Of a stretch of DNA of 64,000 bases, positions 25,891 through 50,977 are shown piece by piece (within the stretch, counting starts at the first letter, position 1; each line of letters opens with the position of its first letter). Position numbers and translations under genes: made by a program. The notes below the pieces were generated by a model, which had not been told where the DNA came from, ran no database searches, and saw nothing but the letters and a program-made list of their open reading frames with translations. This DNA is from Eledone cirrhosa. Its lineage: Eukaryota. Where the stretch lies: NCBI GenBank assembly GCA_964016885.1, contig OZ024740.1, positions 222,518,001-222,582,000 on the forward strand, given 5' to 3'.

Positions 25891-26889
25891 GTAGTCATTT
25901 TGTGTACATGTAGTTGATTACAGCTTTACTATTGACCATATAGGAGCTTGACTTGCTCTTTTTAATGTATAAGCATTAGAATTAAATCAATAAAAAACTA
26001 AAATGAAGAAAAGAAAACTTTTAAAAATGCTTCCTTTAATGACAAATTCCTTGTGATATACTCCAACATATTACATCTCAATGTAAAAGTATTTTATGTT
26101 TGCCTCAAGACTGATCCAAAATACTGTCATACACTTTAGAATCTGAGAATGAGAGATCATGTCATACGCTTTAAGTAGTCACTATATCCCATTGCTGCTT
26201 GCTGCATCTTTCTTTGACTTCTAACTCATGGAAGTATCAATCTGTATCATATAGTAGATAATCAATTGCAGTGATTCTCTTTAGCATGTTTTTATTTTTC
26301 AGAAAGTAAGTGTTCTATTTCCATTAGCATCATTAGCATGCCATCAGTAAGTATCTCTCATCATTGTGAAATTGGTTATCCCACACAATATCTCAACAAA
26401 TTCTGGTTTTCAAATCATCTGACCAGGTTCTGAAAATTCTTCAGTCAATTCATTCCAATTTTTCCTTTATTTTTGAGTCAAGGAATAAGGACAGTACCGA
26501 TGGCATTTTCTGGGGTTGGACAAAGGTGCTCTCAAAACAGAGAGACCTACTTTGAATGTTGCAATGGATTAGATTCCACTGATAGCACTGAAGGGCCAGG
26601 CTATGGTCTTAAACAAGGCAATGGATCTAGACTATTCACCCAGGTAGACAGATTAAGTCTATTACTAGGTGATCTCTTCTAGTATTTTTTCTGCTATCAG
26701 ACAGTTTGCTCCGTGCTAGCTTCTCTACTTATCAAATTCTTTCTGTGGTTTCTATTTTTCTAATGCCTTATTGTTTCTCACACTTACCAGAATCAGTTGT
26801 ATATGACTACCTTCATTATCAGCTTGCATGCCTAATCATCCCGAATAACTGCTGGTACAGTTTTCAGTTTCTATAGAGACAGATCTCCC

Positions 26890-28320
26890 CAATACTCTAT
26901 TTTATTAGCATGCCGAAGACATGATAGAAAGCTTGAGAAGATACTCCAAACCTGGAAGCATGGCCTAGAAACAAAGGGTCTTAAAGTCAATCTGACAAAG
27001 ACTAAGGTCCAATTAAGTAGAAGGTAAAACAGAGCCGTAATCCCATCAGGGAAATGGCCTTGCACAGTGTGTAGGAAAGATGTAGGTAGAAATTCCATCC
27101 TCTGTCCCAAATGCAAACTATGGGTACACAAGAGATGTAGTGCAATCTCAGGAAGTTTAGCTAAGAATATAGGTTTTATATGTAGCCATTACATCTTAGC
27201 AGTAAGTGGCAAATGACCACAGGAAACAAGCACTATAAAATTCTGAGAAGGTTTCATAGAAGCAGTAGACAGTGTCTGCTACCTGGGTAACTAAATTAGC
27301 AGCAGAGGTGGGTGTTCTGAAACCACAGTAGCCAGAGTGAGGATGAGATGTAAGCAGTTCAGGGAGCTACTACTACTGCTAACTACAAAAAGCTTTTCCC
27401 TCAAAATGAAAGGCAGATGTGTGCATACAAACAACATTGCTTCTTGGTAGTGAGATCTGGGCACCGTGTGCAGAAGACTTGCAAAGATTAGAAAGAAATG
27501 AAGCTTGCATGCTTCAATGAATATGTAACAGTAATGTATGTGAATAGCAAAGCATAAAAGAACTGAGAGAGAAACTCGGCATAAGAGGAATCAGATGCAA
27601 TGTGCAGGAGAGGAGATTGTGTTGGTATGGGCATGTGATGTGTATGAAGGATGACAGCAGTATAAAAAGATGCAGAGTGCTGAAAGTTGAGGGAAGCCAT
27701 GGACTGGGTAGATCCAGGAGGACTTCGGATGAAGTGAGAACAATTGACCTTACCCAACTGCACCTCTCAAAGGCGATGACACAGGACCAGGATCTCTGGT
27801 GTTATGCAGTAATACTGAAGACATTCCTTCCCATGAGCACAGGCTGAAGAATGAATATAGTATACACCCCCTTCACATTCATCCCACCACTCTTCCATAC
27901 ACGTCCTATGAGCAGAGAGTGAAACATACATCTAGTTTTCTCCACCCAACACATACCATCACCTCCCATGTCCTAACACACTGCTCTTTATTCACGCCCA
28001 AATACTAACCACCCCAATCCACCACACACCTCTCCCACCAAAATCCCCAGCACACACTGTAAAGTGGTCATGCTGGTGACACGACAAAAAGTACCTGGAC
28101 CACACTGTAAAGTGGTCATGTAGGTGTCATGACAAAAAGCACCGTGTATACACTGTATATGTGGTTGGCATTAGGAAGGTCATTCAACTGTAGAAACCAA
28201 GCCAAAATCATGTCTGTATGAGCAAGGCATTGTCACCTGACCCAGCATTTCTTACATCAGGACAACTCATCTTATCCATGCTAGCATAGAAAAATGGACA
28301 TTAAACAGTGAGGATGATGA
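26890..28320 (+). mobile_element. 5'-truncated RTE-clade LINE (RT C-terminus with Cys-rich insert, 3' UTR, GAT tail), disrupted
   Basis: WKHGLETKGLKVNLTKTKV; WPCTVCRKDVGRNSILCPKCKLWVHKRCS; VDSVCYLG; RRLCWYGHV..GLGRSRRT; stops and frameshifts. Confidence 0.8.
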
Positions 28321-29743
28321 TAATGACTCATCCATCATTTCTGATAAAGCTGACAGCAAAGATATTGACTGTATCACATATATGAGCCTTCTATAAAGCT
28401 ACCCACATATAATTTCTTTCATTTCATCGCAATGAAATGTATGGTGTTTTGACAAGTTTATTTACTATACTTATTTTATCAACTCTATTGTACTTCAGTT
28501 TTTTTGTCTGTAACTTTCTTCATCATATATCTGACTATTTCATTTCTCAGGATGACTTATATCACTGACAAAACTACATTCCAAAATCTAAACACACTTT
28601 TAACAGTAAAAAAATACTGTAGCTAGGAACATTTGCTCAAGGCACCTGTAATGTTGTGCTCATTTATTTCAGACCAGTTTCTATACACCTTCATATAAAG
28701 CTGACGAGTAATTAGTTAATATGCTGCAACTATTTGCTTAATGACATGCTGTATCCCCATTCTTTTGTTATAGATTAGTATAGGGTGTTTCTATTTGAGG
28801 ACTAACATGCTTTATTGACATCAATGCTTCTGGCCACTTTAATTCTCAAATTTTTCATTCCTTATTCTATATTGTGCTGTTTATGGTGTGAGAAAAATGT
28901 TAATGTAATACGTATTGTGCGGAGAAAACTGATAGAATATGTTTTAAAAGACAGGGATATAGCTTGAATCATTCTCATAACCCATTTATCAACTTATAAC
29001 TTTCTCCAGCACACAAAAGAAAACAAAAAACATGATCACTGACAAATGCTTTCTTCTTGTTGATGAATATAAAGTAGAGAAGTTTATCCTTGGTTAGATA
29101 AAAATAGTTTCTGCAAAGTAATTGACCAAGAAAGAGAGAATAAGGAGAGATTAATGCAAAGACTATGCTACAGTATATAATCTCTTAAAAGATTATATAC
29201 TGTTATCTAGGCCAGTCTAGTTTCTGGCTACCAGCTAAAGTATAAAATTTTATCTCTAGAGCAAAGGTGGTCAATCGTTTGCACACTATGTACCCTCATT
29301 CGCAATAACCTTTTTAAAAATATTCTGTTGCATCCCCATAGGAATTTCTTAAAGTATCAGACTTTCATTTATATTTTATTTTATAAATTATTTTATGGAG
29401 AGAACAAAATGTTTAAAAGCATTTTTATATAGGGATCTATTTAGTGTCTTTGATAACGTTGTGTTAATCACAGGCAATACCAGTAAACTTAGAGATCAAA
29501 ATAATACACATATTGCAGCTTTGAAACAATAACTGAGCTCTGAGGTGAAGGCCGATAAGTAAAGGTTGCTGATCTTTTATAAAATCATGAACAAAAGTTT
29601 ATTCTCCTGCATGCCAAAGACATTTTTATGTATGCCATCTTGGGTATACATACCATAAGCACACCACTACATCTATAAAGTAAAAATCTGTAAATAGGAA
29701 TTAAGTGTGTGGTTCAGCAATTCATTATTAATAATTGTTTCAT

Positions 29744-30045
29744 GGGCGGTGGATTGGCAGTATCAGTAGAGGGTCGGACGCCATGCTTTGATGCATAGAG
29801 TTACGGCCCTTGCCATTCTGAGTTCAAATCCCGCCGATGTTAACTTTGCCTTTCATCCTTACGGGGTCGATAAAATAAAGTACCAGTAATGTACTGGATT
29901 ATTGCTGGCCTTGTGCCAATAGTAGAAACAATTATTAATAATTGTTTCTACTCTTGGCACAAGGCCAGCAATTACCCAGTACATTACTGGTACTTTATTT
30001 TATCAACCCCGTAAGGATGAAAGGCAAAGTTAACCTCGGCGGGAT
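29744..30045. mobile_element. Two S1 SINEs tail-to-tail (full + copy, 5'-truncated - copy)
   Basis: 29744-29936 forward; 29939-30045 is the reverse complement of its 3' half. Confidence 0.9.
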
Positions 30046-30899
30046 GTAATTAAATTGTGATGTAGAATTCAGGGATGACCTTAGCTTTTCCAGTCATTCT
30101 CACATGTACATAGATAGGTATCATAAAGCTTAGGTAAATAAGCTACATTATGAGAAGTTCTTCAATGGGGTACACCTATGGTAAAATGGTGTGTGTCTTA
30201 TACATAATCACTGCATTGATCAGTCAAATTTACTGTTCATTTCACTGGGGTTGATAAAATAAATATCTATAATAAAGTGCATCAATTCAATACAAATTCT
30301 TATACAGAACTTTGCCTCATATTTTGTTCAAGTTATCATCAATATTAGAATTGATATGAGATAGGGGATTGGCAAAAATTGTAGTGTAGTAGATGACATA
30401 CAATGGGTGATTTAGATAGGTTCTTTTACATTCTCAGTTCAAATTCCTTTAGAGTCAACTTCATTCTTCAAATTTCTTCATGGTTGACAAAGTAAGTCCA
30501 AGTGAAATACGATAGTCAACAGGATTAATTAGACTCCTTTTAAATATATGCAAGTGTTGACTTGGCTGGTTGGGATGCGTGACATGACAGCCATGTGAGT
30601 GACATGCTATTCAGGTCCTGTATTGGTAACCCCATGGAAAGAGGTGAAGAGCATGTCCCAAGATGACTCGGCAGTAGGCAATTGACAAGGACCTGAAACT
30701 TGTCAATTAAAATTAGAATGATGTATTGATAGCTGCAACTATCCATGGTCCTTGGAATATTTTGGCTTCTACATGCATCTCAAGATATGAGAACTTCTAA
30801 GTCAAAGTAAGTCTTAAATATTGGGCCTTGATATTGGGGCACCACCATCGATTACCTATGCTAGCAAACATTATTAGAAATGTAATGTTTGCTTTCTTT

Positions 30900-31430
30900 A
30901 AACATATGGCATTTGTCTTTCTTTAGTATGACTGTCATGTCTATCCAAATGCCATGTCTAGCTAAATCTGCTATGGCTAGCTGACTTTTCTGATGAAAAT
31001 GGTTCAACACTGTGCTGATTTCAAGATAATTACTTCTTCAGTACCTAGAAACTTTGCTGCAGAAATCTTACAAGTTTTTTCTCTTTTATTTGCAGTTTCC
31101 TCGATCCAATGAACAGTACTCTTTCCATTTGTCTCGATCTAGCATTATCACTCCAAGATCCATTAAATTTCCTCCTGTGTCAGCACATAGCATATCAAGA
31201 TATATTGTTGCAGGGTGACTTCAACTTCTATGGCCAAGTGTAGGCTTCCATAAAAAATCACGGCCACCGCACTTGTTTTTTGCCCTGCAAGAATATCCCG
31301 CATCCTTCTTAGATGAACAATATGTGAGCTAAGTTCAGTTTATTTCTCTAATATAACTTGAGAAATGTTGGGATTAACTAATTGAACTTTCTTCAAGATA
31401 AACTGCAAGACGACAAAGTCTTTACTGGTG
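30900..31430 (-). mobile_element. Degraded RTE-like LINE 3' fragment
   Basis: Minus strand LWKPTLGHRS*SHPATIYLDMLCADTG resembles the RTE C-terminal motif. Confidence 0.45.
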
Positions 31431-32062
31431 CCTCTATGACTTAATTGGTTTATAAGACTTGTGGCTGTAACATTTGTAAGAGTAACAGTATAATATGAGA
31501 GGGGAGATCTTGGTCAGCTGAATCTTCAACCTACATTTATGTCTGGGTTGTAACCATTTTACTTCCGTCATATTCTCAACACACTTTGGGAATATAATGT
31601 ATGAGCAGACAATCTCATATAAATCGGTGATGTTTTGACTAAAACATAAATCAATAGTGCAATGAATATTTTCCAGCTTTTCACAATCAACATCGTCATT
31701 ACTGTTATCATTTTAATCAACATTATCCTTATCTTTATTATCACCATACGAAACATCATTATACTCATTGTTATCGTCATTAATTTGATCTTTATCACCA
31801 CCACCATCATCATCATAATCATCATTATGGCCATGTAAGCAACAGCTATTTTTATAAGAATCTGAAGAAACAGCTTTGGTGTTCTCCCCTCTCTCTCAAT
31901 ATATACATATATACATACATATATATATATATATGTGTGTGTGTATGGGTGTGTGTGAGTGTGTGAGTGTGTGTATAGATGCTTTTGCTCATTCATCTCT
32001 TGTAATTCATTTCTTTTTTCGTTTGCAACTTTTATATATATATATATACATACATATATATA

Positions 32063-32142
<80 letters not shown>

Positions 32143-32552
32143 TCTTTCTTTCTATCATCAAACATTCTTACTAAATGTATGACCTTCAAGTTCAGATTTT
32201 CTCTTCACCAGCATTTAACCTTTGTTTGAAGTGAAGCCAATTTAAACTAGCTTCATAGAAAATTAGCAGATTTCATTTTAGATACGACGACATCTGGCCT
32301 TTTTAGCTTGAACTGTCTTTTTATTAGTTATACTAGCCTGTCCAGTTTTGAACTCAAAGTGCATTAAATCAAAACTAATCTCTCAAGGAGAACCATTCAT
32401 GGGAATTTTTGATACTTTGTTTGAGATCTCATTATCTTAATCAGGACAAGCAATTTTAATGAACTTCTTTTATGTAGAATTAAAAGCAAAATAAAAATAA
32501 AATAAAAAATGTAAATGAATTTAAAAATAAAAATGTCCACATGCTAATGAGA

Positions 32553-32577
<25 letters not shown>

Positions 32578-32591
<14 letters not shown>

Positions 32592-34076
32592 GTGGCTGTG
32601 GTGGTACTGATGATAGGGAAGATGAGTGGGAGGAAAAGAAAGAGTAAAGTATGTAAAGAAAGACGAAAGGGAGGAAGGTAAGAGTGGCCATGACTATGAG
32701 GACAATCATGATGATGATGAAGAGGATGAAAGAGATGATGACGATAATGATGATAAAGGGGATGATGACAGCAATGATGATGATAATGATGATATAAAGG
32801 TGAGGTTGATGATGTCGATGATGATGCTGAAGATTTTCACTACAGAAATAAAATTTAAATTGTTGCTGACAATAATGATGGTGATAATGATGACAAAGGT
32901 GATGAGGACAATGGTAATGATGACAATGGTGATGATGACGATGGTGTTGATGACAACGATGATGATGCCAAGAGTGACGATGATAATGAAGATGATGAAA
33001 GTGATAATTGTTTCTACTATTGGCACAAGGCCAGCAATTACCCAGTACATTACTGGTACTTTATTTTATCGACCCCGTAAGGATGAAAGGCAAAGTTAAC
33101 CTCGGCGGGATTTGAACTCAGAATAGCAAGGGCCGTAACTCTATGCATCAAAGCATGGTGTCCAACCCTCTACCGATACTGCCAATTCACCGATGAAAGT
33201 GATAATGATGGCAACGATGATGATGGGAATGATGATGAGAATGATGATGATGACAATGATGATGATGACAATGGTGATGATGACAATGGTGATGATGACA
33301 ATGGTGATGATAATGAAAAGGATTAAGGTGATAATTATAACAATGATGATATAATGGTGATGACAAAGATAATGATGATGATGATGATGATGATGATGGT
33401 GGTGATGATAACAGTGGTGCAGATGATGAGTGTGATTATGATGACATTGAGTATCATTGTTGTTGCTATTATCATCATTGTCACCATCATGATTATCATT
33501 ACAATTGTTGTTAAGTTACACTTATGATTAAGGTGAGAGCTCTTTCAAATAATAGAGACATAAATATTTTATTCATCATCATTACCAGTATTATGTCTGT
33601 ATTTCCATTCTGGCATGGGCCAGGTGACATTTTTGAAGAACTCTATGAATAGCTACCCTTTGATAACAACTTTCAATTGCTCTCTAAGTAAGATATGAAA
33701 TTTTGTCCATTTCTCTGCCTGGCCTGAGCCATGAGACTAGTTTATGTGGAATACAAATAAACATCACTGCCTATAAAGATTTGAATTATTTAAGATCACC
33801 AAACACCCGTTAAGTCATTCTTCGCTTTTTTCTTACTATATATCTTACTATACTAAGGAAGTTCTTTGATTTTCCACTATATATATATATATATATATAG
33901 GAACGAGTAGGAGCCCGACGGCTGAGCTCAAGCCGTTTCGACGGTGAATTAACCGTCGAAACGGCTTGAGCTCAGCCGTCGGGGTCCTACTCGTTCCTAT
34001 TACCCACTCTACTACCCTAAGTATTGAGTACTTTGGTGCGTTATGGTCCACCTGGTTCCTTACCACATTTCCTTCG

Positions 34077-34149
<73 letters not shown>

Positions 34150-34300
34150 GTCGTTTGGAAGCCTCGACAATGCAGATGCGTAAATCTCCGGGTAACAAGA
34201 TCCGGTGGTGGGTGTATGTTGAGATGCGTGGCGTGTATAATACTGTAACGTGTAGAGAATGAAGGAAAGAGCGTAAAGGATAAAAATAAAAATAACAACA
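32578..34300 (+). repeat. Left arm of ~1.7 kb inverted duplication ((GAT)-rich DNA, S1 SINE, unique DNA, family Y pLTR)
   Basis: Reverse complement of 39425-41106; ORFs 32626..33099(+) and 40587..41060(-) are almost identical. Confidence 0.95.
33898..34079 (+). mobile_element. PLE pLTR family Y: ~100-nt near-perfect hairpin holding the 3' half of a hammerhead, plus tail
   Basis: Arms 33898-33945 and 33952-33999; GAAA-CGGC..GCCG-TC gives stem III and GUC; tail runs to (TA)n. Duplicate at ~39630-39811. Confidence 0.85.
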
Positions 34301-34591
34301 CGAGAAAGAGTTACCTTGGGAGAGATTTAACTGTCCCTATATATTCTCATCACATAAAATAGGGAGACATGATATGAAGCTTAAAAAACATTGCAAGCAG
34401 TGAAGTGTTAAATCAATATATGAAAAATAAGATAAGATGGATATATGAGATTGGGAAAAAAGAAGGAAGGGGGAAGAAAAAGGTAAGGAAGAGGAAGAAA
34501 GAAAATAATAAGAAAAAAATATATAATAATAAGGAAAGGATGACGGAGAAGGAGTATAGGAAGGAAGGATGAGAGAGGAGGAGAAATGAGT

Positions 34592-34636
<45 letters not shown>

Positions 34637-34716
34637 TTTAATACTGAGAAAAACTGTCTCACAGAGAACTTTAAAAGAACGTTGTAAGATAATACATAAT
34701 TAAAAAAAAAAAACTT

Positions 34717-34783
34717 TTTTGTCTGATGAGAACGCAAATATCATCCCATGATGATATTTGTTTTAGAAATGCGCATAATAAAA
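34717..34783 (+). ncRNA. Type I hammerhead ribozyme, palindromic stem III
   Basis: TTTTGT/ATAAAA stem I; CTGATGA at 34723; stem II AACGCAAATATCAT/ATGATATTTGTTTT; GAAA at 34766; ATGCGCAT palindrome; AUA triplet. Confidence 0.85.
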
Positions 34784-34964
34784 TACATGGTACTCTGTTA
34801 ACCATCTTTTGATCTTATATTATATTTATACTCCAGTCCTATAAACTGTTGAGTGCTATTTATTCGATATATGCATTGCTTTATTGAGCTACAATAAAAC
34901 TCACCTCCTACATTATATATATATGGCGTGGTAGAGTCGGAAATGCTCTACTACAGAGATAGGA

Positions 34965-35639
34965 GCTAAATAACAAAGGAATTGCGGTAAGGAACCAGAT
35001 GGACTATAACGCACCAGAGAACTCAATACTTAGGGTAGTAGAGTGGGAAATAGGAAAATGTATGACCCCCACGACAGAGCTCAAGCCGTTTCGACGGCTA
35101 TTTCTGGACTAACTACATATAGCAGATGTGTTAAACCCCTTTAATTTTGTATCAGTTTTGTAATTTCTACAAGTTTTTTCTATTCTCAACTTATTAACCT
35201 GTAATTGTAAGATAGCATTGTGATTTTTTTATTCATTTCTCACTATCTAATTTTATATATTTTTTTATTTCTTTCTAGTATCTTTTATTGTCTCCTACTC
35301 TCATTCGATTTACCTATTCTATAACCTCCCTCCTCCACTTCATACACTATCCTTAAAATCTGCTGTATACATATCACTTTCAACGCTTGACCGCTCCACT
35401 CACTCCCCTATTATTCTACAGGCAAGTTCAGCCACCCCTACCACCCACCAAATGCCATGATGGACTTATTTGTGTTTACAACACATATTAACCAATCCTC
35501 TTGACAACTACAATCTTCCCATATAAGGAAGTACCCCCTTGACAAATTCGGCTATTTATTCACCAGGCTAAAAATTCTAATTTAGTCCAGAAATAGCCGT
35601 CGAAACGGCTTGAGCTCTGCCGTCGGAGTCATACTTTTT

Positions 35640-35643
<4 letters not shown>
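34965..35643 (+). mobile_element. Diverged family Y pLTR pair (inverted arm with tail, forward arm with ribozyme)
   Basis: 35051-35112 is the reverse complement of 35582-35643; 34970-35050 is the reverse complement of the family Y tail. Confidence 0.8.
35531..35634 (+). ncRNA. Hammerhead with U3-A8 core variant
   Basis: TTGACAA at 35539-35545; stem II CGGCTATTT/AAATAGCCG; GAAA at 35602; CGGC/GCCG stem III; GUC 35622-35624; imperfect stem I. Confidence 0.65.
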
Positions 35644-35681
<38 letters not shown>

Positions 35682-35807
35682 AAGTTTTATTTAAATTGTT
35701 GGGTTACAACGAGTAAATATTTATAACTGATATAAAAGCACTCAACAAGTATTTGGAGTATATTTACGATATTAAATAAATGGAAATTATATTTATAAAA
35801 CCATATT

Positions 35808-35873
35808 TATTTCATTATATATATTTCAGGGATATCATATTGAAAATATGTTATGCCTTCTTCAGACAAAATA
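35808..35873 (-). ncRNA. Type I hammerhead ribozyme (pLTR family X)
   Basis: Minus strand TATTTTGT-CTGAAGA-AGG..CCT-GAAA-TATATA-TA-ATGAAATA. Family copy at 57066-57131. Confidence 0.8.
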
Positions 35874-37211
35874 CAATATAAACAGTCTTATAAATAGATA
35901 GATTCGACATACCTTTCAACTTCGACTTGCATTTGAAAAGTTGATTTGGTAGTGAAAAATATTATGGACAGTTATAAAAAGAAAGAAAGAAAAACGAAGA
36001 AAAAGAAGAAATGCATGCAACTAAATAGAGAGAGATAGATATAGAGAGATAGATATAGAGAAGAAATTCATGTAAAGAAACAGAGAGAGATATATAGAGA
36101 GAGGAAAAAACACAGAGGGAGATAGATAGAGAGAGAGAGAGAGAGAAAAGAGAGAGAGAGAAAATATAGAGAGATAGATATAGATAGAGATAGAGAGAAA
36201 GAAAATAGGTAGTTGGGCACCAGTTGAATGACGTATCAATGATATATTTATTTATTTATTTATTTATTTAGCTCTAGTATTAATGTAGAGAGAGATATAT
36301 GTGGTTAGGAGAGAAAACAGCCGTTACATAGAGAGAAAAGAAAAATATCCAGACATAAACGAGGCAGATTTAAAACACTATGTTTCATCAATGTAAAAAT
36401 ATCAATTCGTATAAATCAGGCATTATAATGTAAATATCAGTATTCATGAATGAGACACGTATCAATAATGTGTGAAAAATAATGATCATATGTCTAGTTT
36501 AAAATTCCTAAGTTTATATCAGAGTTGAGATAAAATAGAAGGTTATCCCAGATTCGATACTATAGACATCCATGTGAATTTACGTGATCAGCTCTGCAAA
36601 TTCCTATTTCACACGAAAACATTCTCATTGTGCTATAAAAATTCTAGTATACATATATGTGTACACACACACAAATATATATAGAGTCTACATTAATTTT
36701 AACAATACTATTCTTGTCGTTACTCTACATGATTATCGTTCAAGCATAAATAGAGAACAGATATCAATATATCAATAAAAATATCAGAAACCAAAAAAAT
36801 ATACAAAAAAACAAAAAAACATATTAAAAATAAAAATATTAAAAATATTAAAAATAAAAATAAAACATAGTATGCCCCGCAAATCAACCACAGAGATCAA
36901 CCCTTCAAAGTTAATTGACAATATATTGCCAAGTTCGTTATAAGCGTCAGAATCAAAAGCAAACAAAACCAAAAATTATTTACCAAATCCTGTCTAGCAG
37001 AAAACATTCCAAAAAGTTTAGGATACCCATTTGATCTACAGATGTTCTTATATTTAATATAGAAGTTTATCTAGTGTAAAATTTATTCGATATATTTGGT
37101 GCATCAGCTTTTAGGGTAGTTTAATTATTCATGAAGAATGTTTAAAATAAAAAAGAAATCGAAAGATTTATCGGCGAGTTTCATAAATAATTATAAATCA
37201 AACTAAATATA

Positions 37212-39390
37212 CTAGATTTTAAATTTATATTTATATTTAAAAGTTGAGTTCAATCTATGTCTGCAGCAACTGAATAAATTTGTCCGTAAATTAAGGGAAT
37301 TTTTAGATTTTAGTATAAAGAATATCTCCTCCGCGCAGAGGTCACATGTCTCAGAGGATGAATTAAAAGGAATCCCTCTTGAGACTATATTCCAAGCCGT
37401 CGAATATGCAACGTTATCATGCCTAAGTTGCCAGAGTAAGCCTGATAGCGATGTTGAAGATTTTTTGCTTGGATCTGTGAAAGAATTCTTGTGGTTATTA
37501 TAGCGAAGTTTAAATTCTGTCGAGGTGGAACCAACATAGTTAAAAGAATTTAAGTCCGTTTTAACATTACAGTTGTATATTATATTTTTAACTAAGCAAT
37601 TGTTATTTAACGGACATTTAGATCTATCTCTACAGTTACATTTGTTAACTTGGATATTATTTATGCTATTATCGGTATTTTGGCTAGGTTTTAAATTCCT
37701 ATTATTTATTCTATTAATATTTTGTGCTAAATTTTTGGTGGATGAGTAGGTTAATTTTATAGTATGTCTATTGAAAATTGAGTGATACCTATGTGTTCTA
37801 GGGAAGCGATTATCAAGAGCATTAAAAAATAGTTTAGCGATGTGGGTTTTAATGTTTAGTGAGAAAGGGGGGCAAACCATATTATATTCCTAGTTCTATT
37901 TATTTTTTGGCTTTTGGAATTATTGTAATGCTTTCTATTATAGTTGTTAAAGTTGTTGCCGTAATTAAAATAGTTGTTATTTTGGTTAGTTTGTCTATTA
38001 TTATCTATGTACATAATTTTATCACTATATCCTGCTCTAGCTAACGCTTCATTGTAATACTGGGCTTTTTCGTCGAAAATCTTTTTATTAAATGAGATTC
38101 TAGAAATACGTTTTTGAACAGAGTTTACTATAGTATTTTTAACAGATCTGGGGTGGTTAGAGTTAAAGCTGACATAGTTTAAGTTTTCATTCAACTTGTG
38201 AAATGGATAGTGAAGACATGTGTTGAGATTTAATGTTACATCTAGGAAATTGACTATTCTATGGTTATTCTCAATTTCTATTTTTAGATTAAAGTAATTA
38301 AAAAATTGTGTAATTTGTTTTCTTTTTCTATTTAGTTCAGAGTTATTATTTTCAACAAGTAAAAGCATGTCATCTCTATATAAACCTCCGGTAGCACCGG
38401 GTATTTTCCTATGCAGCGAATTGATTAAAAATAGGCCCACAAGGTCAGTTACCTGAGCTGAGTCGGATGATCTCATAGTAATGTCGAAATTGTTATCACT
38501 ATCTGCTCTGGTCCATAGTTGGTCATTAAATTCTATCAATGTTTTCCTAGCCGATAAAATAATGTGCATTTCATTGCTAGTTAGGTCTGTATGTTTGAAT
38601 GCGTAATTTAGTGCCTTATTTAGTAGATTAGGGGTAATAGATGAATAATAGTTAGCAATATCTAGTTGAATAAACTTATTATTATTGTTATATTTAATTT
38701 CTTTAAACCACTCAACAACCTCTCCAGTTCCCTTCCACAAGCTCAAGTTAGGTAAACAATTCAAGTTTTTAATTTGCTGTATCACCCTGTCTAGAATGTT
38801 TTTGCTTAGTTTACCCAGGTCCGATTTTGATGGTGCAATCAATCTTACTGGCAGGTCATTTTCAAAATTTCTTTTGTGATCTTTCATATTGATCTTCGGT
38901 TTCCTGGGCACGAAAGGTTGTGTTCTGTTCTCAATTTCCAACTCATGCATTATACAAGATGCCTCAACATTCATTTTCTCAAGCTCGGCCTTATCTGCTA
39001 CCTTGTACTTTTTCCTCAGTTCTTTCAGTATGAGGCCATTATACAAGTCTTTTTGCACTCCATAGAGGTTGTTGGTCTTGTCAGATTTCACCAAGATCTT
39101 CTCAGTTTTCTCTAAGCTCTCAATATTATCCTTAATGCCTTTCAAATATTCCTGGCCTTTGAAGTTTCTCTTGAATTTGACTCCTTGTATGATAGAAATT
39201 ATATCGTTTTCAAAGTCAAATAAAAGTTTGTTGGGGGTGGATTTCTTTTAGATTTGAAAACTTTGTCTAAGTCCGAGACATTTTCATTTATATTAGATTT
39301 ATCAAAGTGGAATGCCCGCCACCTGATTCTCCTTATAAAAGAGTCAGATTTATCTATTAAATGTTTAATAACGTCTTTGTTTCTAGGTAT
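37212..39390 (-). mobile_element. Naiad-clade Penelope-like retroelement ORF (RT + GIY-YIG), 5'-truncated, two frameshifts
   Basis: FIRRIRWRA, KSDKTNNLY, FIQLDIANYYSSI, FDITMRSSDSAQVTDLVG, GLYRDDML, VNFLDVTLNL, SNHP, WFAP/PFS, CNCRDRSKCPLNNNC, IIY..YVGST..FKLRYNNHKNSF, CDLC, LNLR..CRH. Confidence 0.93.
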
Positions 39391-39424
39391 AACGATATAA
39401 TTTCTATCATACAAGGAGTCAAAT

Positions 39425-39575
39425 TGTTGTTATTTTTATTTTTATCCTTTACGCTCTTTCCTTCATTCTCTACACGTTACAGTATTATACACGCCACGCA
39501 TCTCAACGTACACCCACCACCGGATCTTGTTACTCGGAGATTTACGCATCTGCATTGTCGAGGCTTCCAAACGAC

Positions 39576-39632
<57 letters not shown>

Positions 39633-41106
39633 CGAAGGAAATGTGGTAAGGAACAAGGTGGACCATAACGCACCAAAGTACTCAATACTTAGGGTAGTAG
39701 AGTGGGTAATAGGAACGAGTAGGACCCCGACGGCTGAGCTCAAGCCGTTTCGACGGCTAATTCACCGTCGAAACGGCTTGAGCTCAGCCGTCGGGCACCT
39801 ACTCGTTCCTATATATATATATAGTGGAAAATCAAAGAACTTCCTTAGTATAGTAAGATATATAGTAAGAAAAAAGCGAAGAATGACTTAACGGGTGTTT
39901 GGTGATCTTAAATAATTCAAATCTTTATAGGCAGTGATGTTTATTTGTATTCCACATAAACTAGTCTCATGGCTCAGGCCAGGCAGAGAAATGGACAAAA
40001 TTTCATATCTTACTTAGAGAGCAATTGAAAGTTGTTATCAAAGGGTAGCTATTCATAGAGTTCTTCAAAAATGTCACCTGGCCCATGCCAGAATGGAAAT
40101 ACAGACATAATACTGGTAATGATGATGAATAAAATATTTATGTCTCTATTATTTGAAAGAGCTCTCACCTTAATCATAAGTGTAACTTAACAACAATTGT
40201 AATGATAATCATGATGGTGACAATGATGATAATAGCAACAACAATGATACTCAATGTCATCATAATCACACTCATCATCTGCACCACTGTTATCATCACC
40301 ACCATCATCATCATCATCATCATTATCTTTGTCTTTGTCATCACCATTATATCATCATTGTTATAATTATCACCTTAATCCTTTTCATTATCATCACCAT
40401 TGTCATCATCACCATTGTCATCATCACCATTGTCATCATCATCATTCTCATCATCATTCCCATCATCATCGTTGCCATCATTATCACTTTCATCGGTGCA
40501 TTGGCAGTATTGGTAGAGGGTTGGACATCCTGCTTTGACGCATAGAGTTACGGCCCTTGCCATTCTGAGTTCAAATCCCGCCGAGATTAACTTTGCCTTT
40601 CATCCTTACGGGGTCGATAAAATAAAGTACCAGTAATGTACTGGGTAATTGCTGGCCTTGTGCCAATAGTAGAAACAATTATCACCTTCATCATCTTCAT
40701 TATCATCGTCACTCTTGGCATCATCATCGTTGTCATCAACACCATCGTCATCATCACCATTGTCATCATTACCATTGTCCTCATCACCTTTGTCATCATC
40801 ATCACCATCATCATTGTCAGCAACAATTTAAATTTTATTTCTGTAGTGAAAATCTTCAGCATCATCATCGACATCATCAACCTCACCTTTATATCATCAT
40901 TATCATCATCATTGCTGTCATCATCCCCTTTATCATCATTATCGTCATCATCTCTTTCATCCTCTTCATCATCATCATGATTGTCCTCATAGTCATGGCC
41001 ACTCTTACCTTCCTCCCTTTCGTCTTTCTTTACATACTTTACTCTTTCTTTTCCTCCCACTCATCTTCCCTATCATCAGTACCACCACAGCCACCATCAT
41101 CATCAT
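39425..41106 (-). repeat. Right arm of ~1.7 kb inverted duplication
   Basis: Reverse complement of 32578-34300. Confidence 0.95.
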
Positions 41107-41335
41107 GGTGATTTAGGTGAGGTTGGTTTCTTATTTTAATTCAAACTTTTAATTTTAATGTTTTTCCTATGCCTCTAGTAGATTATATTCTCTTCACGTT
41201 GGTGGTTTGAAATTCCTGTAAAGAAAAACAGTCTTATGTGTCTTTCCCCTCTATACATTGTATTTTAAAGTGTCCATTAAAACTCTTTCCTTTGAGCTCA
41301 TTTAATTACAAGATTATACGCGAATCCTTTGCTCC

Positions 41336-42420
41336 ATTATTATACCAATTTATGTAGAAGCTTGTATAAGATCAACAGATACTTATTCAGGTGGGCTCTT
41401 ATAATTCTTCAGTGGGTGCCCAATAATATTAATATTGATAATCAAATCAACATTAATATTTAGCGATAATCACCATCAGTGCTTGGGGTAGCTGCTAGGT
41501 TGGTAGCCCAGCAGTTCTAAAGAAATACTCATACTGTCTCAAGCACTGATGGTGATTATCGCTAAATATTGATGTTGATTTGATTATCAATATTAATATT
41601 ATTGGGCACCCACTGAAGAATTATAAGAGCCCACCTGAATAAGTATCTGTTGATCTTATACAGGCTTCTACATAAATTGGTATAATTTCACCCAATTTGT
41701 AGGAATCTTATAATGAAACGAGACGCCGTCTGAGATGAGATATATTTGATATAACTCATATGAAATAAAACAGCCAATTTTCCACACAATACAATTAGTT
41801 AGCACCCGAACGTTTAATTAAGAATATATTCACTTATTTCCTAATGTGTGTTGAGTGAGTTGGGATTTGGTCGGAGTATCGCTATAGCTTTCTCCGATAA
41901 TGTATTTATATATTTAATCTTGGAGCAACGGATATGAACTTCCCGATATAAGGTTTGGCTCTCTTTGTTTATTTTTATATATGAATATTGATTGTTTCTT
42001 GTATCTCATTCTCTTCTTTTGCCCGAGAAAATATCTGTGTGTCATCAAACGATGTACACATGGATATTTTTTCAAATTCCAATTGAATTCTAGCACGTGG
42101 CTTGAATTCCTCTTAGAGTTCATTGTCCTGCGCATGTATTGTTTTTTGGCGGTAATTCTCCTTCCTCTTTTTTTTTTGAGACAGTATGAGAATATCTTTA
42201 GAACTGCTGGGCTAGCAACCTAACAGCTACCTAAAGCACTGATGGTGATTATCGCTAAATATTGATGTTGATTTGATTATCAATATTAATATTATTGGAC
42301 ACCCACTGAAGAATTATAAGAGCCCACCTGAATAAGTATCTGTTGATCTCATACAAGCTTCTACATAAATTGGTATAATTTCACCCAACTTATTAGCTTT
42401 CTCCGATAATGTATTTATAT
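41336..42420 (+). mobile_element. PLE remnant: inverted plus partial tandem pLTR copies
   Basis: 41336-41543 is the reverse complement of ~42175-42376; 41541-41696 is a direct copy of ~42233-42388; shared end TAGCTTTCTCCGATAATGTATTTATATA at 41885 and 42394; NGYELPDI (~41927-41950) resembles a PLE endonuclease C-terminus. Confidence 0.75.
41608..41735 (+). ncRNA. Type I hammerhead with large branched stem II insertion
   Basis: CTGAAGA at 41613; ATTATAAGA/TCTTATAAT stem II; GAAA at 41715; ACG..CGT stem III; GUC 41728-41730; weak stem I. Confidence 0.7.
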
Positions 42421-42423
42421 ATA

Positions 42424-42581
42424 TATAGTTATAGGAATAGCCAAAGAGTGCTTAGCATATTCCTATAACTATAACGGCTCTGTAGTATACTAGTTATCCT
42501 ACATTGAGCTAAAAACACACTGTCATACCAAGGGCAATATATCAGCGTGTCTGGCAATATTGATATATTTGTCAACGAAAC
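42424..42581 (+). mobile_element. Minimal PLE end in (TA)n: 16-bp inverted repeat plus tail
   Basis: TATAGTTATAGGAATA (42424-42439) and TATTCCTATAACTATA (42458-42473), followed by the UU-bulge hairpin. Confidence 0.65.
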
Positions 42582-42685
42582 TATATACATATATATATAT
42601 ACATACATATATATATATATGAAAGACGTAAAATAAGAAAATTTTAAAAAGAATTTAAAAAATTAACTTACTTACTAAAATTTTC

Positions 42686-42767
42686 ACTCCAACTAATTAG
42701 TTTCTGCAATGGGATAAAGACAGTTACGTAATATAACCGTCGAGAATTCATTGCGTCATCAGGGAGT
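42686..42767 (-). ncRNA. Type I hammerhead ribozyme, palindromic stem III
   Basis: Minus strand ACTCC-CTGATGA-C-GCAATG..CATTGC-A-GAAA-CTAATTAG-TT-GGAGT, inside a 25-bp inverted pair (42618-42642 and 42840-42864). Confidence 0.85.
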
Positions 42768-42970
42768 CTATTCTCAGGTAAGTCTCCAGGCAATGCGCGG
42801 ACACTGGGGACTCATATAAAAATAATAATAATTCGGTAGATTTTCTTATTTTACGTCTTTCATATTATTGTTCTGCATCCTCCTGCATTGAACCACCTAG
42901 GTACTATTACATAACTTATGTATTTGCTAGCATTAGCGTACATCTGTACGCATATGTTAGTAGATATACT

Positions 42971-43062
<92 letters not shown>

Positions 43063-43148
43063 CATATATATATAATCACATATATATATATTTAATATAG
43101 AAAAGGCTTCTACAGGACTAGAACACAGATAAACACATAGTTAAATCT

Positions 43149-43240
43149 TCTCCTTTGCTGACGATCCGGGATTTGACTACTGATTTACCAATTGATGGTG
43201 AAATATATTTCTTTATTCAATGAAGTATATACAAAGGAGA
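43149..43240 (+). ncRNA. Type I hammerhead ribozyme
   Basis: TCTCCTTTG/CAAAGGAGA stem I; CTGACGA at 43158; GAAA at 43200; stem III ATATATTTC/GAAGTATAT; AUA triplet; irregular stem II. Confidence 0.8.
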
Positions 43241-43769
43241 TTAATCATCTTTAAAAGGTTTTGAAGTTCTCGTTAAACTTTAATAGGACTGTCTGGATGC
43301 CCTTGCCAACATCAACGACGTTTACAGTGTGGACTGGGAGGTTTTTACGTGTTACCTACATGGCCACATTACAGCATCGTGACACCTACATGACCTCATT
43401 TATTTAGGACTGGATGTTATGGTACCAACATAACTTTACAGAGAAAGGGTGGTGTTGATAGGGGCGGGGCAGTTGGGGTAGTGGGATGGGGGTGTATATT
43501 TGATTAAGAGGTGCCTACTGACTGTAGGTTTCACTTTGTACTTAGGCAAGGTGGGTTTTCTGTATTACTGCAAAACACCAAAGATCTCGGTCCAGTGACA
43601 TTGTCTTAGAGAGGTGTAAGTGTGTAAGGTCAGAATTTATCAAATCGTCCCAGGTTTTTCTGGGTATGCCTACTCCGTAACTTCTGTCAATTTTGATCGC
43701 CCTGCATTTTTTTATACAAAAAAAAAAAATTAAAAAATAATAATAATGATTTCTTTATTTATTTATGTG

Positions 43770-44170
43770 ATCACAATATCACGGCAAAAGAATTTGACAA
43801 GCTACAAAAATATAAAGATCTGCTTATTGAAATTGAGAAAATGTGGCACCTCAAGGCCGTTACAATACCAGTGATTGTGGGAGGACTGGGAATGATCAAG
43901 AAAGGAACAGAACAATATTTGCGAATTATTCCTGGTTTACCCTCTCTGCAAGAGGTGCAAAAATTTGTTTTGACGGGTACTGCACACGTATTGAGAAGAG
44001 TACTATCTCTGTAAGATTGATATCCTTCCTTACATATGCATATGCACATGTGCATATATGTATACTGTTTTTTTTTGTTTTTATTGTTAGTTTTAATCAA
44101 TGTTCTAATTTATTTGCCCTAGGTGTCAGGAAGAGACTCGCCATATATCTCAGAAACAATAATGCAAGAA

Positions 44171-44406: not shown

Positions 44407-44649
44407 TTATAATAATAATAATAATGTTTTCTTTATTAACCACAAGGGTTTACATAAAGTAGACATTAAGGACAGTACAGGACAATACAGGACGGTACAA
44501 ATGGGCATTTCTGCGTGTAAAAAAAACGGAGGTTGAAATAAAATAACAAAGAAAAATTCCCCAATAGGGGGGATACTTCCGAGGGACATTTGTGGAGAAA
44601 GCCCATTAAAAGACCACAGTGGCCCTGGCCACCAGGGCAAGTGCCCTCT

Positions 44650-47030
44650 CCCAGTTTTCCACCTTTAATTTACAGACACATACTCAGAGAAGGCCCATTC
44701 ATTCGGGCCATACTTGCTTCTCTCACCCATCTTTCAACAAAATGCTGGGAAGAGAGTACTTCCCTCTCTACCCTGATTTTCCTTTTCAAATGAAATTTGA
44801 AAAAGTTAATCAGGGCATCACCGAAGAGGTAAGTGCTCGTCTTCAGCCCTTTCAAACGTGTCCACCATACTATCTCTTTCGCCATGGCCACCAGACAGAT
44901 AAAAACTGCCTGCCCTCACCTCTTCGTATTCTCTTAGTGTAGTGCCGATCGCCTCGATGTGTTTGGCGTTCGACACCACTACGGTGACATCGTCGGCATA
45001 TGCTGACACGGATCTTCCGCATCTTAGTTCGCGCGGGACCCCCCCTCAACGTCTCCAGTTTGTGCAGTAATGGCTCGAGAGTCAATACGTACAATAGGGA
45101 CGAGAGGGGACATCCTTGGCGGACCAAGCGCATGATGTTGAACGGTTCCGAAAGGTGATCCTTCACTCTCACTACAGAGCAGATGTCGCTGTGCATGGCA
45201 GCGGTCCAGCTTCTGAAGGCGGGCCCAAAGCTAGCCGCCCTCAGGACTGCCGCTAGGTAACGATGGTCGACCCTATCGAAAGCTTTCGACTGATCTAAAT
45301 TGATCAAGGACCCACCCGTGCCAGGTTCCATAGCTACTCTCTCTACGATGTATCGCATGAGGTGGAGGTTGTCGTGGGTGGATCTGTCGAGAATGGCGCA
45401 TGTCTGTGCCTCTCCCACCAGACCACCAACGACAAGCGCCAACCTCATTGCTAGCACCTTGGACAAAATCTTGAACTCTGTGTTTAGCAGAGTTATGGGC
45501 CTAAAATTATCTATGTTATCCCCCTTATTCGGATCCTTTCTCAGCAGCGCCACAGCTTCTCGGCTCACAGAGCTGGGAATTGTCCCGTTCTGTTGCCAGT
45601 TGCAGTAGATGTCCGCCAAGCGGCCTCCGAACAAGTCTGGCATCTGTACGTAATGTTCATAGGGCAGATATTCCAAACCAGGCGAATTACCTCTTGTGCC
45701 TCCCGTACTTCAGCGGCTGTTATCAGCTTTTCGCAACACTCCGCCTCAGTGGCCGAGAGCCGCGGCAGTCCGTCGAGATAGACACTAATGTCCATCCCTC
45801 GATCCTGCCCGCCCCTGCCCCCGAACAGCTGTGCGAAGTGTCGCTGAAAAGCTTCACACATTTAACCGGGATCGAGTACCTAACGCCCGTCGTGGTCCAC
45901 CAAAGACCGGATCGTGGCTTCGTTGCCACTACGCGCCTCCGCCACTCGGGCCCATTGAACGGCTTTCGTCCCCTCGTGTCTGAGAGCACGCACCCTAGCT
46001 CTGACAACGCAGCCTTCGTGCTTTGCATTGAAGAATTGGTGAAGGGCCTATTTCGCCGCAAGTACGTCGGTCGCGATGCCTTTGCTAAGCGCCTCGTCTA
46101 ATTTTCTAACTAATTCTCCCTCTACTCTATTTTTCTTTATTGCTAAAGCCTTACTAAACCTAATGGACTCTATTCTAATTGCTCTTTTCAGAGCAAACCA
46201 CCACTTGTTGTTGACGATGGCCCCCGTCAACGCCCGCTTAACTAGTTCGCTAATCCGGTCTCTGGTGAGGATGCGTTTAGCTTCCAGTAGCCTGGTCCTC
46301 GTCTATGAAGCCTATCTAAGTAAAGCACACAGATCACGAATTTGTGGTCCGTGTAGCTGACTATCTTGAATTGTGGACAGCCTATGCTAGACCTATCTAT
46401 TTCCCTACAAAATACTCTATCTAGATATGATCTGGATGACCCTATGCGATGTGTCCAAGTCCACATTGACACATTCGGGAAATCCAATCGGTACCTGTCA
46501 GACAGTTCAAAACGCCTGAGCAGGTTGGTGAGGCTCTTGCACCTTCCTCCCCTATCCGCTAATCCCACACAGTCCCAGCGTGCATCTAAGATGCCGTTCC
46601 AGTCGCCCACTAACACTAAAGAGCGGGACGTTCCTAGAAAGGTCTCCAGACGCCGGAAGAAATCAGGCCGCCCTGCTCCTGTCGTGGAATAGACGGCCAC
46701 TAGCCTGAAAGCTTGCCCGTCCCCGCTGGTCATGTCTAGCATCACCAACTTACCTTCTGGGTCCAGGAAGATGGCCCGTATGGCGAGATCCAAACCTCTC
46801 CGAAAAAGCACAGCAGCTCCTCCCCCCGATCCCGGACGGCTGGGAGATGCGTACACATCGTAGCCGCCGAAGATCGGTGCGAAGGCCCGTGCTTTGGAGA
46901 TTCTGGTCTCGCTGATGGCCACTACATCTATGTTTAGTGACCTGTGGTCGTTGAGCAGGTGGCCCTCCTTCCATGACGACCCCAAGCCAAGCGCATTTAT
47001 GCTGCCTATTCTGAGTGAGGTGACGTTGAA
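44650..47030 (-). pseudogene. LINE ORF2 (APE endonuclease + RT), frameshifted and internally deleted
   Basis: LRIGSINALGL, ISETR, VGDWN, SYLDRVF, TDHK, GYWKLN; NFRPITLLNTEFKILSK, LDQSKAFDRVDH, RQGCPLS, YADD. Confidence 0.92.
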
Positions 47031-47743
47031 ATGGAGTGGAAAAGATGGGAAAGACCACTTACCTTCTCGTAGAGGAAGGATGGTTTGTCCATCCTTTTCA
47101 CCACTTGTGGCCTCCTCCGGAAGGATGTCCTAATAAATCCTCCTGGAGATTGTTTGTCGGAAGTCTCCGATTTCTTTGGGTAATTTTTGTTTTAGTGTCG
47201 TGTACGTTTTCTGTGTGATGCGAGTGATTTGTATGTGTGGAGGTGGTGTGAACCTTTGGGTTGTTATGTAGTCTTTTTCTGTGATGCTGGTGTTGTGTTG
47301 GATGTAGTGTAATAATTGGTTGTTGTTCAAATTTAATGCTGTGTAGTGTGTATCGTTTTGGTTGTTTTGTTTTGTTTGCGTTTGTTGTGGGTTTCATTCT
47401 GTTACGCTTTTTGGTGACTTTTGTGGTGTTGGTGTTTGTGGTGATGGGTTTGGTGATGCTGGTGTGGATGGTGGCATATCTGTCCTAACTTTTTTGTTTG
47501 ATAGTTTATTTGTTTCCCTCCATATTTTGTTTTTGGAGGGGGAAGGAAGAGAATTTTTCTTTTTTGGTTTCTTTTTTTCATTTTTCCTGATACCGCTTCC
47601 CACTCCTCGTCGTCACAATCTGTCAGCAGTTGCTATAAGCCGGGAAGTGGAAAATCCTCCACAGGCGTTGGTTTTGCTTGTGGCGTGGTGGATGGTGTAG
47701 GCGCTGGTCCTAGTTCTGGCGCGTTGGGTGGTGGTGTTGTTGG

Positions 47744-48682: not shown

Positions 48683-49278
48683 TTTGGTTGAATTTATTTC
48701 GATATCACGAGTTAATTTATTTTTTTCTGTTGTTTCTGTGTCGCTGGGGTGGGGTGGCGGCTTTAAAACACGCAGTCATTGGTAATGGCGGGAAATGAAT
48801 GTCTGCCTGAGACAAATTTAAAATATTGCTACTGCTTATATTTTTAGTGTTGGCAAACGTAGTAATATTTACAATGGTGGTGTCGGTGTGAGGTGTTAGT
48901 TTGTGAGGAAGGTGTGACTCTGTGACGGCCATGATTTTTCAAAGAAATTTTTTTTTTTTGTTTGATAATTATAAAAAGATTAAATTTTGGGCTCAAGGCC
49001 CCAATCTTTTTGAGTGTCTTTTCAGAAATCAATGTATGTGCACTTATATACAGTTAACAATAAAAAGTTTCCATAAATGGCAATTTTAAACAACTGAAAA
49101 TAACAAACCTTTGCGGAACTCACAGTGATACGATTTACAACGTAGGTCGACAATAATAATAATAATAATAATTTTTTTTTTCTTTTTTAAATGATAATCA
49201 ATGTGCTGTATTAACTGGCTTACCAATGCACACTGTGAATTTATTTGCCCTCGGAGTCAGGAAGACACTCGGCATATA

Positions 49279-50920: not shown

Positions 50921-50922
<2 letters not shown>
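49279..50922 (+). mobile_element. R4/Dong-like non-LTR retrotransposon, 5'-truncated at RT YMDD, disrupted, (TAA)n tail
   Basis: FYMDDLKLFA, MEFGLDKC, TYKYLGV, AINTLAIPV, IYLPRKERGCGL, RHD..IHW, NRPDII, LIDMSVP..EKLSKYKDL (PD-D/ExK RLE). Confidence 0.9.

Positions 50923-50973
<51 letters not shown>

Positions 50974-50977
<4 letters not shown>

Follow-up and report, generated by a model that had tools for sequence, protein, structure and literature searches.

How DNA from beside an insertion can come to stand, inverted and over more than a kilobase, at the 5′ end of a retroelement is the question raised by a locus of Eledone cirrhosa (Eukaryota). The stretch analysed, hereafter the window, comprises 64,000 nucleotides of assembly GCA_964016885.1 (contig OZ024740.1, positions 222,518,001 to 222,582,000 of the forward strand), and all positions below are those of the window. 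Two near-identical inverted arms enclose a spacer that contains what its domain order and motifs indicate to be a Hydra-type Penelope-like retroelement, and the inner end of one arm meets the truncated 5′ end of that element. The account to which we give somewhat better than even chances is that the complementary DNA (cDNA) end snapped back twice at integration, first onto itself and then onto genomic DNA on the target side, copied 1.7 kb and was rejoined with loss of the right flank. The result is best explained as a version of the inverted 5′ arm that is routine for these elements, with flanking DNA as its material.

The inverted arms and their junction with the element

Self-BLAST of the whole window returns a single long inverted match, between 32580-34300 and 41106-39425, in which 1664 of 1721 columns are identical (96.7%), with 18 mismatches and 3 gaps (E=0); the arms enclose a spacer of 5124 bp (34301-39424). 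All three gaps fall within tandem repeats, one as a 15-bp unit and two as differences in (TA)n length, and three of the 18 mismatches make up one slippage event (33370-33377), so that 15 true substitutions separate the arms, corresponding to 0.9% (95% confidence interval (CI) 0.5-1.5%) or 0.45% per arm. The anatomy is present and lies well above chance expectation. An initial annotation, made by reading the sequence, had described such arms around a 5.1 kb spacer, and the alignment confirms them with the left start moved by 2 bp (32580 instead of 32578).

Native coding sequence of the element stops at 39390, around codon 15, and gives way to a 35-bp segment that is an exact inverted copy of coding sequence lying 182 nt from the truncation point (Table 1). 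Base 39425 is common to this segment and the right arm, so that the arm starts where the 35-bp inversion at the element 5′ end finishes, as had been noted, with one shared base. This second switch has an overlap of 1 nt, and the first, where the native continuation is known only from homologues, one of no more than about 1 nt. The 35-bp segment was also considered as native coding sequence; it is in frame and bears a faint likeness to the N-terminus, but its profile score of 1.8 compares with 24.5-40.3 for 21 native N-termini. Random inverted 33-mers of the element score as well as the segment in 79 of 3657 cases, and for a homology that might have guided the 35-bp switch there is at most a weak hint. 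At the other extreme, the outer end had been placed within (GAT)n, and the repeat is indeed found on both sides, as (ATG)13 on the left (32553-32591) and (CAT)4 on the right (41095-41106). No target-site duplication is discernible at the outer ends. The 233 bp past 41106 were tried as the missing 5′ part of the open reading frame (ORF), as the other half of the left flank and as part of the spacer, and matched none of them (local scores 38-49 versus shuffled maxima of 57-61).

In the supplement of PMC8557442, the octopus Hydra consensus has about 170 nt ahead of the start codon. Since the truncation falls at about codon 15, the break lies within roughly 200 nt of the element 5′ end, and the copy appears nearly full length. 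The element would measure about 2.5 kb if it ends in an AT-rich tract or 3.7 kb if it ends in (TA)n; Hydra elements are described in the same source as shorter than 3 kb and are reported to target (TA)n. A degenerate hammerhead-like motif starts at 37107, 105 nt after the stop codon, and the distance from ORF end to hammerhead is 97-200 nt in related loci (n=11). Two pattern scans across 36250-37211 found no canonical hammerhead, and a canonical one is available at 35865 if the adjacent element Z forms the Hydra 3′ end, Z being either a separate insertion or a long 3′ untranslated region (UTR) of the Hydra element. All hammerhead calls rest on pattern scans; Rfam gave 56 matches at E up to 5 on 30000-44000, none at gathering score and none to a hammerhead family.

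Identity of the element

The element had first been taken for a Naiad. In PMC8557442, Naiad elements are defined by a GIY-YIG endonuclease N-terminal to the reverse transcriptase (RT), a DKA motif, CCHH within the GIY-YIG core and a CX2-5CxxC finger before the core, and Hydra elements by a C-terminal endonuclease, RWK replacing GxKF/Y, DKT, CxCX5C, and CxxC plus CxH with no CCHH. On the minus strand of the window the RT (39232-37871) precedes the endonuclease (37865-37215), and homologues align in the same order. The element carries DKT, and DK[TS] is found in 28 of the 29 long homologues and DKG in none of the 29. At the aligned N-terminal position it reads RIRWR, a conservative variant of RWK, with RxRW[KR] present in 18 of 29 homologues, a set in which several lack the N-terminus. 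The CxCX5C linker (shared by 25 of 29 homologues) and the CxxC and CxH flanking E and N, with no CCHH, were read in the translation of 37212-37889, where no CxxC stands between the GIY-like and YIG-like strands; the conserved R, H, E and N columns align in the C-terminal endonuclease. The Naiad identity is thus refuted by the C-terminal endonuclease, DKT instead of DKA, CxCX5C and the lack of CCHH, with none of the three tested Naiad features (N-terminal endonuclease, DKA, CCHH) present. Pfam gave no informative family for either ORF piece and a PDB sequence search gave 0 matches; the endonuclease call rests on the homologues and the motif description of PMC8557442.

By domain order and motifs, the element is therefore assigned to the Hydra-type Penelope-like retroelements, its likeness to Hydra-1_Obim being judged by eye. 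It shares with Hydra-1_Obim and the Hydra clade (PMC8557442) the order of RT and endonuclease, DKT, RW[K/R], CxCX5C, the CxxC and CxH around E and N without CCHH, and a length of about 720 codons. It differs from elements of that type in forming a separate family, as a protein search found 52 relatives (the named ones from Argonauta hians, Octopus bimaculoides and Oculina patagonica) of which the best full-length ones reach 33-40% identity. Downstream of the RT thumb and ahead of the endonuclease linker (37920-38000) lies an Asn-rich insertion that the Argonauta and Octopus relatives share and that is reminiscent of the Asn-rich inserts in Penelope elements of rotifers. The ORF is the only near-intact Penelope-like one found in the window. 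It has no in-frame stop over 722 codons and spans three frames, with two frameshifts in G runs (37867-37872 and 39233-39237); the RT bears a Gly-to-Arg change, and 2 of 56 invariant residues are changed, compared with 0-6 in intact-looking homologues.

Composition of the arms and direction of copying

The arms are mostly repeat-derived, over about 80% of their length. GAT-rich low-complexity sequence makes up 43%, the SINE (short interspersed nuclear element) 11%, a small foldback insertion of family X 10%, the 5′ part of element Y 9% and (TA)n 5%, the inner 420 bp consisting of (TA)n and Penelope-like pieces. The remaining 22% (33501-33877) has no other match and no repeat character in the window. 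Of the earlier description of the arms as a SINE and unique DNA, the SINE (33004-33193) stands, and unique DNA can be claimed for that 22% at most. Element Y is whole on the left, where it continues past 34300, and its copy on the right is cut at that point, which identifies the left arm as the original from which the right arm was copied. A coding origin for the 5′ part of Y was considered and is unsupported, the alignment to the endonuclease remnant at 63.5 kb being off register.

Polarisation by paralogues places derived changes on both arms, firmly two on the left and seven on the right, and all four homopolymers of at least 5 bases have the same length in both arms. Seven of the 15 substitutions fall within 88 bp of the SINE (33100-33187 / 40499-40586; p=5e-4 by 200000 uniform simulations), four of the seven being firmly derived in the right arm, and the adjoining 724 bp lack true substitutions altogether. 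The cluster would be compatible with conversion from a different SINE copy, with a change from one SINE copy to another in the course of synthesis, and equally with conversion between the two arms in their other parts.

Table 1. Features of the duplicated locus (window positions; RT, reverse transcriptase; UTR, untranslated region).
Feature	Position	Strand	Remarks
(ATG)13 tract containing the outer end of the left arm	32553..32591	+	
Left arm, original copy; inner end continuous with element Y, which crosses 34300 to a hammerhead at 34723	32580..34300	+	
SINE in arm, with target-site duplication; copy at 40493-40682	33004..33193	-	
Small foldback insertion of hammerhead-type Penelope-like family X, between (TA)n runs; copy at 39631-39812	33900..34079	+	family assignment putative
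Element Y, (TA)n-flanked, minimal type I hammerhead 34723-34777, holds inner breakpoint 34300	34147..34911	+	boundaries by eye
Element X, larger copy between (TA)n runs, with an inverted 5′ arm of its own (35053-35112 vs 35582-35641)	34925..35641	+	
Element Z, minimal hammerhead 35865-35816, 3′ end at (TA)n 35642-35678; 83% copy at 56832-57180	35679..36245	-	
Probable 3′ UTR of the Hydra-type element	36870..37211	-	left boundary inferred
[quoted passage not shown]
Template of the 35-bp segment, in coding region, 182 nt from truncation point	39174..39208	-	
35-bp snap-back segment, exact inverted copy of 39174-39208, replacing native N-terminal codons	39391..39425	+	35/35, E=3e-11
Right arm, derived inverted copy, cut within element Y	39425..41106	-	
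(CAT)4 tract at the right arm's outer end	41095..41106	+	

Inverted 5′ junctions in related insertions

Inverted 5′ junctions are the rule for these elements. In the window they are seen in 6 of 8 parsed Penelope-like insertions, namely the small and large X copies, Z at 56.7 kb, the 41.3-42.4 kb element, a weak 10-bp case at 3870 and the Hydra copy, and are not seen for Y or for Z at 35.7 kb; the count excludes the hammerheads at 20683, 42762 and 43158 and the remnant at 63.3 kb. A scan of a prokaryotic genome collection adds 15 loci (L001-L015) with Hydra-type genes, hammerheads and (TA)n, which are probably animal DNA within binned assemblies labelled as bacterial. Eleven of the related loci have more than 100 bp 5′ of the match, and eight of these carry an inverted segment there (26-1519 bp), which in seven is purely element sequence.

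The eighth, L007 (CBDDTI010000575.1, 3961-8520), offers a parallel to the Eledone locus. Truncation of its Hydra-type ORF falls near residue 33. The inverted arm (3961-4453) reproduces the element 3′ end, (TA)n and about 208 bp beyond, of which 204 of 208 aligned bases are identical, leaving aside a 31-bp tandem duplication. A 280-bp foldback element was later added in the 3′-side (TA)n, and at 4661 the ORF is broken up by a palindromic insertion of 1.3 kb. Apart from (TA)n, the duplicated flank of L007 has no match in the other fetched loci. An arm that runs past the element 3′ end is thus present in 1 of 11 loci (CI 0.2-41%).

A proposed double foldback coupled to integration

Under the favoured model, the GIY-YIG endonuclease would cut an AT-rich site of the present spacer, near 36870 or in the (TA)n at 35642-35678, and RT would extend the 3′ end of the plus strand rightwards by target-primed synthesis over nearly the whole element, to the end observed at 39390. 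The cDNA end would then snap back onto itself 182 nt upstream and copy 35 nt, the product seen at the junction. A second switch on the same strand, whose product is also observed, would lead to genomic DNA at 34300, 1.4-2.6 kb past the element 3′ end, from where 1.7 kb would be copied out to the (ATG)n; the exposure of this template by resection of the opposite strand, like the enzyme at work, is supplied by the model. Finally, the growing end would be joined with little homology to the far DNA end at 41107, a join that is observed and that would entail the loss of the original right flank.

Both switch templates belong to the plus strand, i.e. the primer strand, and lie upstream of the growing end, and this is the strand that 5′ resection of a break leaves single. 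The junction overlaps of 0-1 nt fit either jumping by RT or end joining. The end of a nearly full-length cDNA is expected near the element 5′ end, where a random break is unlikely, so that the break position supports a coupling to integration; taken together with L007, it favours such coupling over later repair. The ages of arms and element are compatible, but loosely, as 0.45% per arm compares with no stop in 722 codons, where 0.3-0.4 would be expected at 0.45%. The duplication is most likely a neutral by-product whose arms have since drifted 0.9% apart. The proposal of the initial annotation, in which a truncated cDNA switched template onto nearby genomic DNA at integration, survives as the best-supported mechanism, with the corrections that the cDNA was nearly full length and that its clade is Hydra, not Naiad.

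Several observations nevertheless weigh against the model. The age test is weak, since a stop-free ORF allows decay of up to about 4%, and two protein searches provided no close sibling protein for dating the copy (best 57% identity, over a short piece). Neither a target-site duplication nor a firm element 3′ end is discernible. A deletion must be assumed, because the 233 bp past 41106 are unmatched and do not start with (TA)n, and the first 30 bp there share an 11-mer with the GAT region of the arm in left-arm orientation (empirical p ~0.05), which hints weakly at 3′ transduction. The cluster of seven substitutions in 88 bp (p=5e-4) is not accounted for by integration. As for L007, the flank it duplicates could be repetitive sequence, and no continuity, tRNA-like or other, was demonstrated at the outer breakpoint of that locus.

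Alternative explanations

The same anatomy is predicted by repair of a break at an older insertion, in which host polymerases made two foldback switches, the element 5′ end was deleted and 1.7 kb was duplicated, with the element as a bystander or as the source of a nick. Yeast breaks without any retroelement form templated foldback inversions of about 5-34 bp (PMC11724301). The region from 33.9 to 43.3 kb is rich in (TA)n and palindromes, and with two frameshifts and the Gly-to-Arg change in RT the element could predate the arms. A random break would, however, need to hit about 200 nt at the 5′ end of the sole near-intact Penelope-like ORF found in the window, and the same coupling of truncation point and arm is repeated in L007. 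Microhomology-driven switching also usually shows longer overlaps than the 0-1 nt seen here. We regard this explanation as unlikely, if the strongest of the alternatives.

A 3′ transduction, slightly less probable again, would start from a read-through RNA of a Hydra source with 3-4 kb of flank, inserted as an 8.5-kb unit into (ATG)n with both ends primed. The right arm would then be an ordinary 5′-truncated inverted copy of the RNA 3′ end, and both outer ends would lie in the same microsatellite, like inverted pseudo-long terminal repeats (pLTRs) in (TA)n. This is the only explanation under which the arm is a 5′-truncated copy of the element's own 3′ end, and the arms have no match to 35679-39390 except the base shared at the 35-bp junction. 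It would suit the sequence right of 41106, which resembles a continuation of an ATG/GTG tract and shares the 11-mer with the arm (p ~0.05), the tails in the inverted arms of element X and of Z at 56.7 kb, which are absent from the sense copies and require priming at both ends, and the uptake of 0.9-1.5 kb of host DNA and mobilisation of host genes by rotifer Penelope elements (PMC3846280). The RNA would nonetheless have to traverse the sense hammerhead of Z and several nested elements, and the target would be atypical, as Hydra elements are reported at (TA)n, and (ATG)n lacks self-complementarity and would offer only 2 nt for priming on the right. In addition, the outer flanks share no homology, and editing-type changes show no excess in the required polarity (1 T/C among 15 substitutions).

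An assembly artefact, in which the arms are two alleles joined by a haplotype switch at a heterozygous rearrangement or stem from a chimeric read, carries a low probability, below that of transduction. Tandem and inverted Penelope-like structures are known to trouble assemblies (PMC8557442). A divergence of 0.9% with differing microsatellite lengths is also typical of two alleles, and the G-run frameshifts could be long-read errors. Against this, the inner junction is complex and base-precise, the four homopolymers agree between arms that each carry derived changes, and a single-arm haplotype with this junction needs a segment that was both moved and inverted, which is more complex than a duplication. 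Chimeric foldback reads, for their part, yield arms without a 5-kb spacer.

Finally, a jump of the RT after the first snap-back to a local plus-strand transcript, with 1.7 kb reverse transcribed, would dispense with resection and was suggested by 6 of the 15 substitutions being A on the left and G on the right, none with a 5′ G neighbour, as adenosine-to-inosine editing leaves, but polarised sites give an ancestral G at 33125 and 33952 and a derived right-arm A-to-G only at 33000, so that editing as the origin of the arm differences is unsupported, and with no exon found among the scanned ORFs and no splicing difference between the arms we consider the jump very improbable.

Other elements of the spacer and the window

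The spacer is a nest of elements, Y, X and Z followed by the Hydra copy, with boundaries drawn by eye, in a region (33.9-43.3 kb) where (TA)n and palindromes abound. Stem-loops of family X fold at 35530-35625 with z=-2.5. The inverted arms at 34925-35641 and 56743-57180 carry 3′ tails of about 80-125 bp that are absent from the sense copy; compared with the 30-40 bp described for these elements, such long tails suggest priming from both target ends. A Penelope-like partial tandem at 41339-42473, 230 bp from the outer end of the right arm, has an inverted 5′ arm (41339-41542 vs 42176-42379) followed by a 50-bp palindrome. Type I hammerhead-like motifs also occur at 42762-42691, 43158-43231 and 20683-20716, the last after a 33-bp tandem repeat (20516-20613), and an exact 26-bp inverted repeat (42617-42642 / 42840-42865) around a 200-bp segment resembles a miniature inverted-repeat transposable element or another foldback junction. 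At 63290-63700 another kind of GIY-YIG endonuclease is left as a remnant, broken at a long G run and bearing cysteines ahead of the YIG strand; it would belong to a Penelope-like element of canonical or Naiad type.

No host exon was found among 95 scanned ORFs (89 of 102 listed and 6 from long interspersed nuclear elements (LINEs)), a scan that covers exons of at least 62 codons; five of the 95 gave matches, all in a transposon context. Among these is a PHD finger within a decayed LINE RT C-terminal region (26800-27900; Pfam E=3e-7), which is no host exon. A minus-strand LINE with apurinic/apyrimidinic (AP) endonuclease and RT lies in pieces at 44409-52725; about 500 bp are present twice in direct orientation (44409-44916 / 50960-51456, 86%), and a plus-strand fragment of a second LINE is nested in it (49301-50810). 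Two SINE copies tail to tail at 29738-30045 form a 218-bp palindrome of 95% identity, and a Mariner-type transposase fragment is present at 55121-55429 (Pfam Transposase_1, E=4e-12).

Implications

An arm made of target-flank DNA cannot stem from element RNA, and, if the event is confirmed to have occurred in place, it points to a DNA-templated foldback at the integration site. More generally, the inverted 5′ arms of Penelope-like elements may in part be DNA-templated cis foldbacks that follow first-strand synthesis and regularly overshoot to duplicate hundreds to thousands of bp of flank, a generalisation that we offer tentatively, at rather less than even chances. If it is true, these elements would be a recurrent and unrecognised source of long inverted repeats in element-rich genomes, and hence of double-stranded RNA, editing substrates and invertible segments, and flank-containing arms would provide a direct genomic test between RNA self-priming and DNA snap-back. 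The present locus and L007 suggest a simple genome-wide count of such arms. A transcript spanning both arms would form a 1.7-kb duplex, and recombination between the arms could flip the spacer, two hypothetical consequences already raised in the initial annotation; the locus probably represents a neutral scar in DNA that is dense in repeats and devoid of genes. As a single locus it is of modest interest, and of more as a lead on how Penelope-like elements finish integration.

Comparison with known systems

Penelope-like elements are known to carry inverted 5′ copies (PMC8557442; PMC8969392). The origin of their tandem and inverted ends is called unresolved in the former, and a study of rotifers favours RNA self-priming (PMC3846280). 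The arm described here shares with inverted pLTRs (PMC3846280 and PMC8557442) an inverted segment directly at the 5′ truncation, microsatellite ends and a variable arm length. It differs in holding no part of the 3′ end or hammerhead of the element and in copying flank that starts 1.4-2.6 kb beyond the element. The earlier view that the arms are not an ordinary pLTR is right in that the arm lacks the element 3′ end, and needs the qualification that this arm is a modified form of the inverted 5′ arm made routinely, for which R2 and L1 provide precedents. In rotifers, Penelope copies also take up host DNA and bear repeats of non-pLTR origin (PMC3846280), with the difference that the host DNA is there placed within the unit, separating ORF from pLTR, or else is enclosed by pLTRs and accompanied by a target-site duplication. 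A retrozyme preprint ties animal hammerhead repeats to Penelope-like elements (10.64898/2026.07.22.740005). Within a literature search that did not cover the older Drosophila Penelope papers and a 2005 review, no report was found of Penelope-like insertions that duplicate their target flank in inverted orientation.

The closest precedents come from other retroelements. In R2, the cDNA snaps back onto cDNA or nearby ribosomal DNA, often following full-length synthesis, and the resulting 5′ junctions resemble the present one in that the cDNA 3′ end primes on cDNA or near the target before the 5′ join; those insertions are engineered, in human cells and with R2 protein, and the available passages contain neither a kilobase-scale copy of flank nor a double switch (PMC11371274). 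For L1, PMC11702581 describes a foldback with 6.3 kb (6271 bp) of resection and three insertions carrying locally templated DNA. As here, the cDNA-extended end anneals kilobases upstream after resection and DNA is templated near the site. These events, however, are somatic, in cultured cells, and made by a LINE with AP endonuclease, with large foldbacks resolved by replication, whereas the duplication in Eledone turns back after 1.7 kb and is part of an assembled genome; the supplementary figures S9-S10 of the same study may hold the same anatomy. Inverted 5′ arms and the snap-back outcomes of R2 and L1 were thus already known, and what appears to be new is an inverted 5′ arm copied from the flank.

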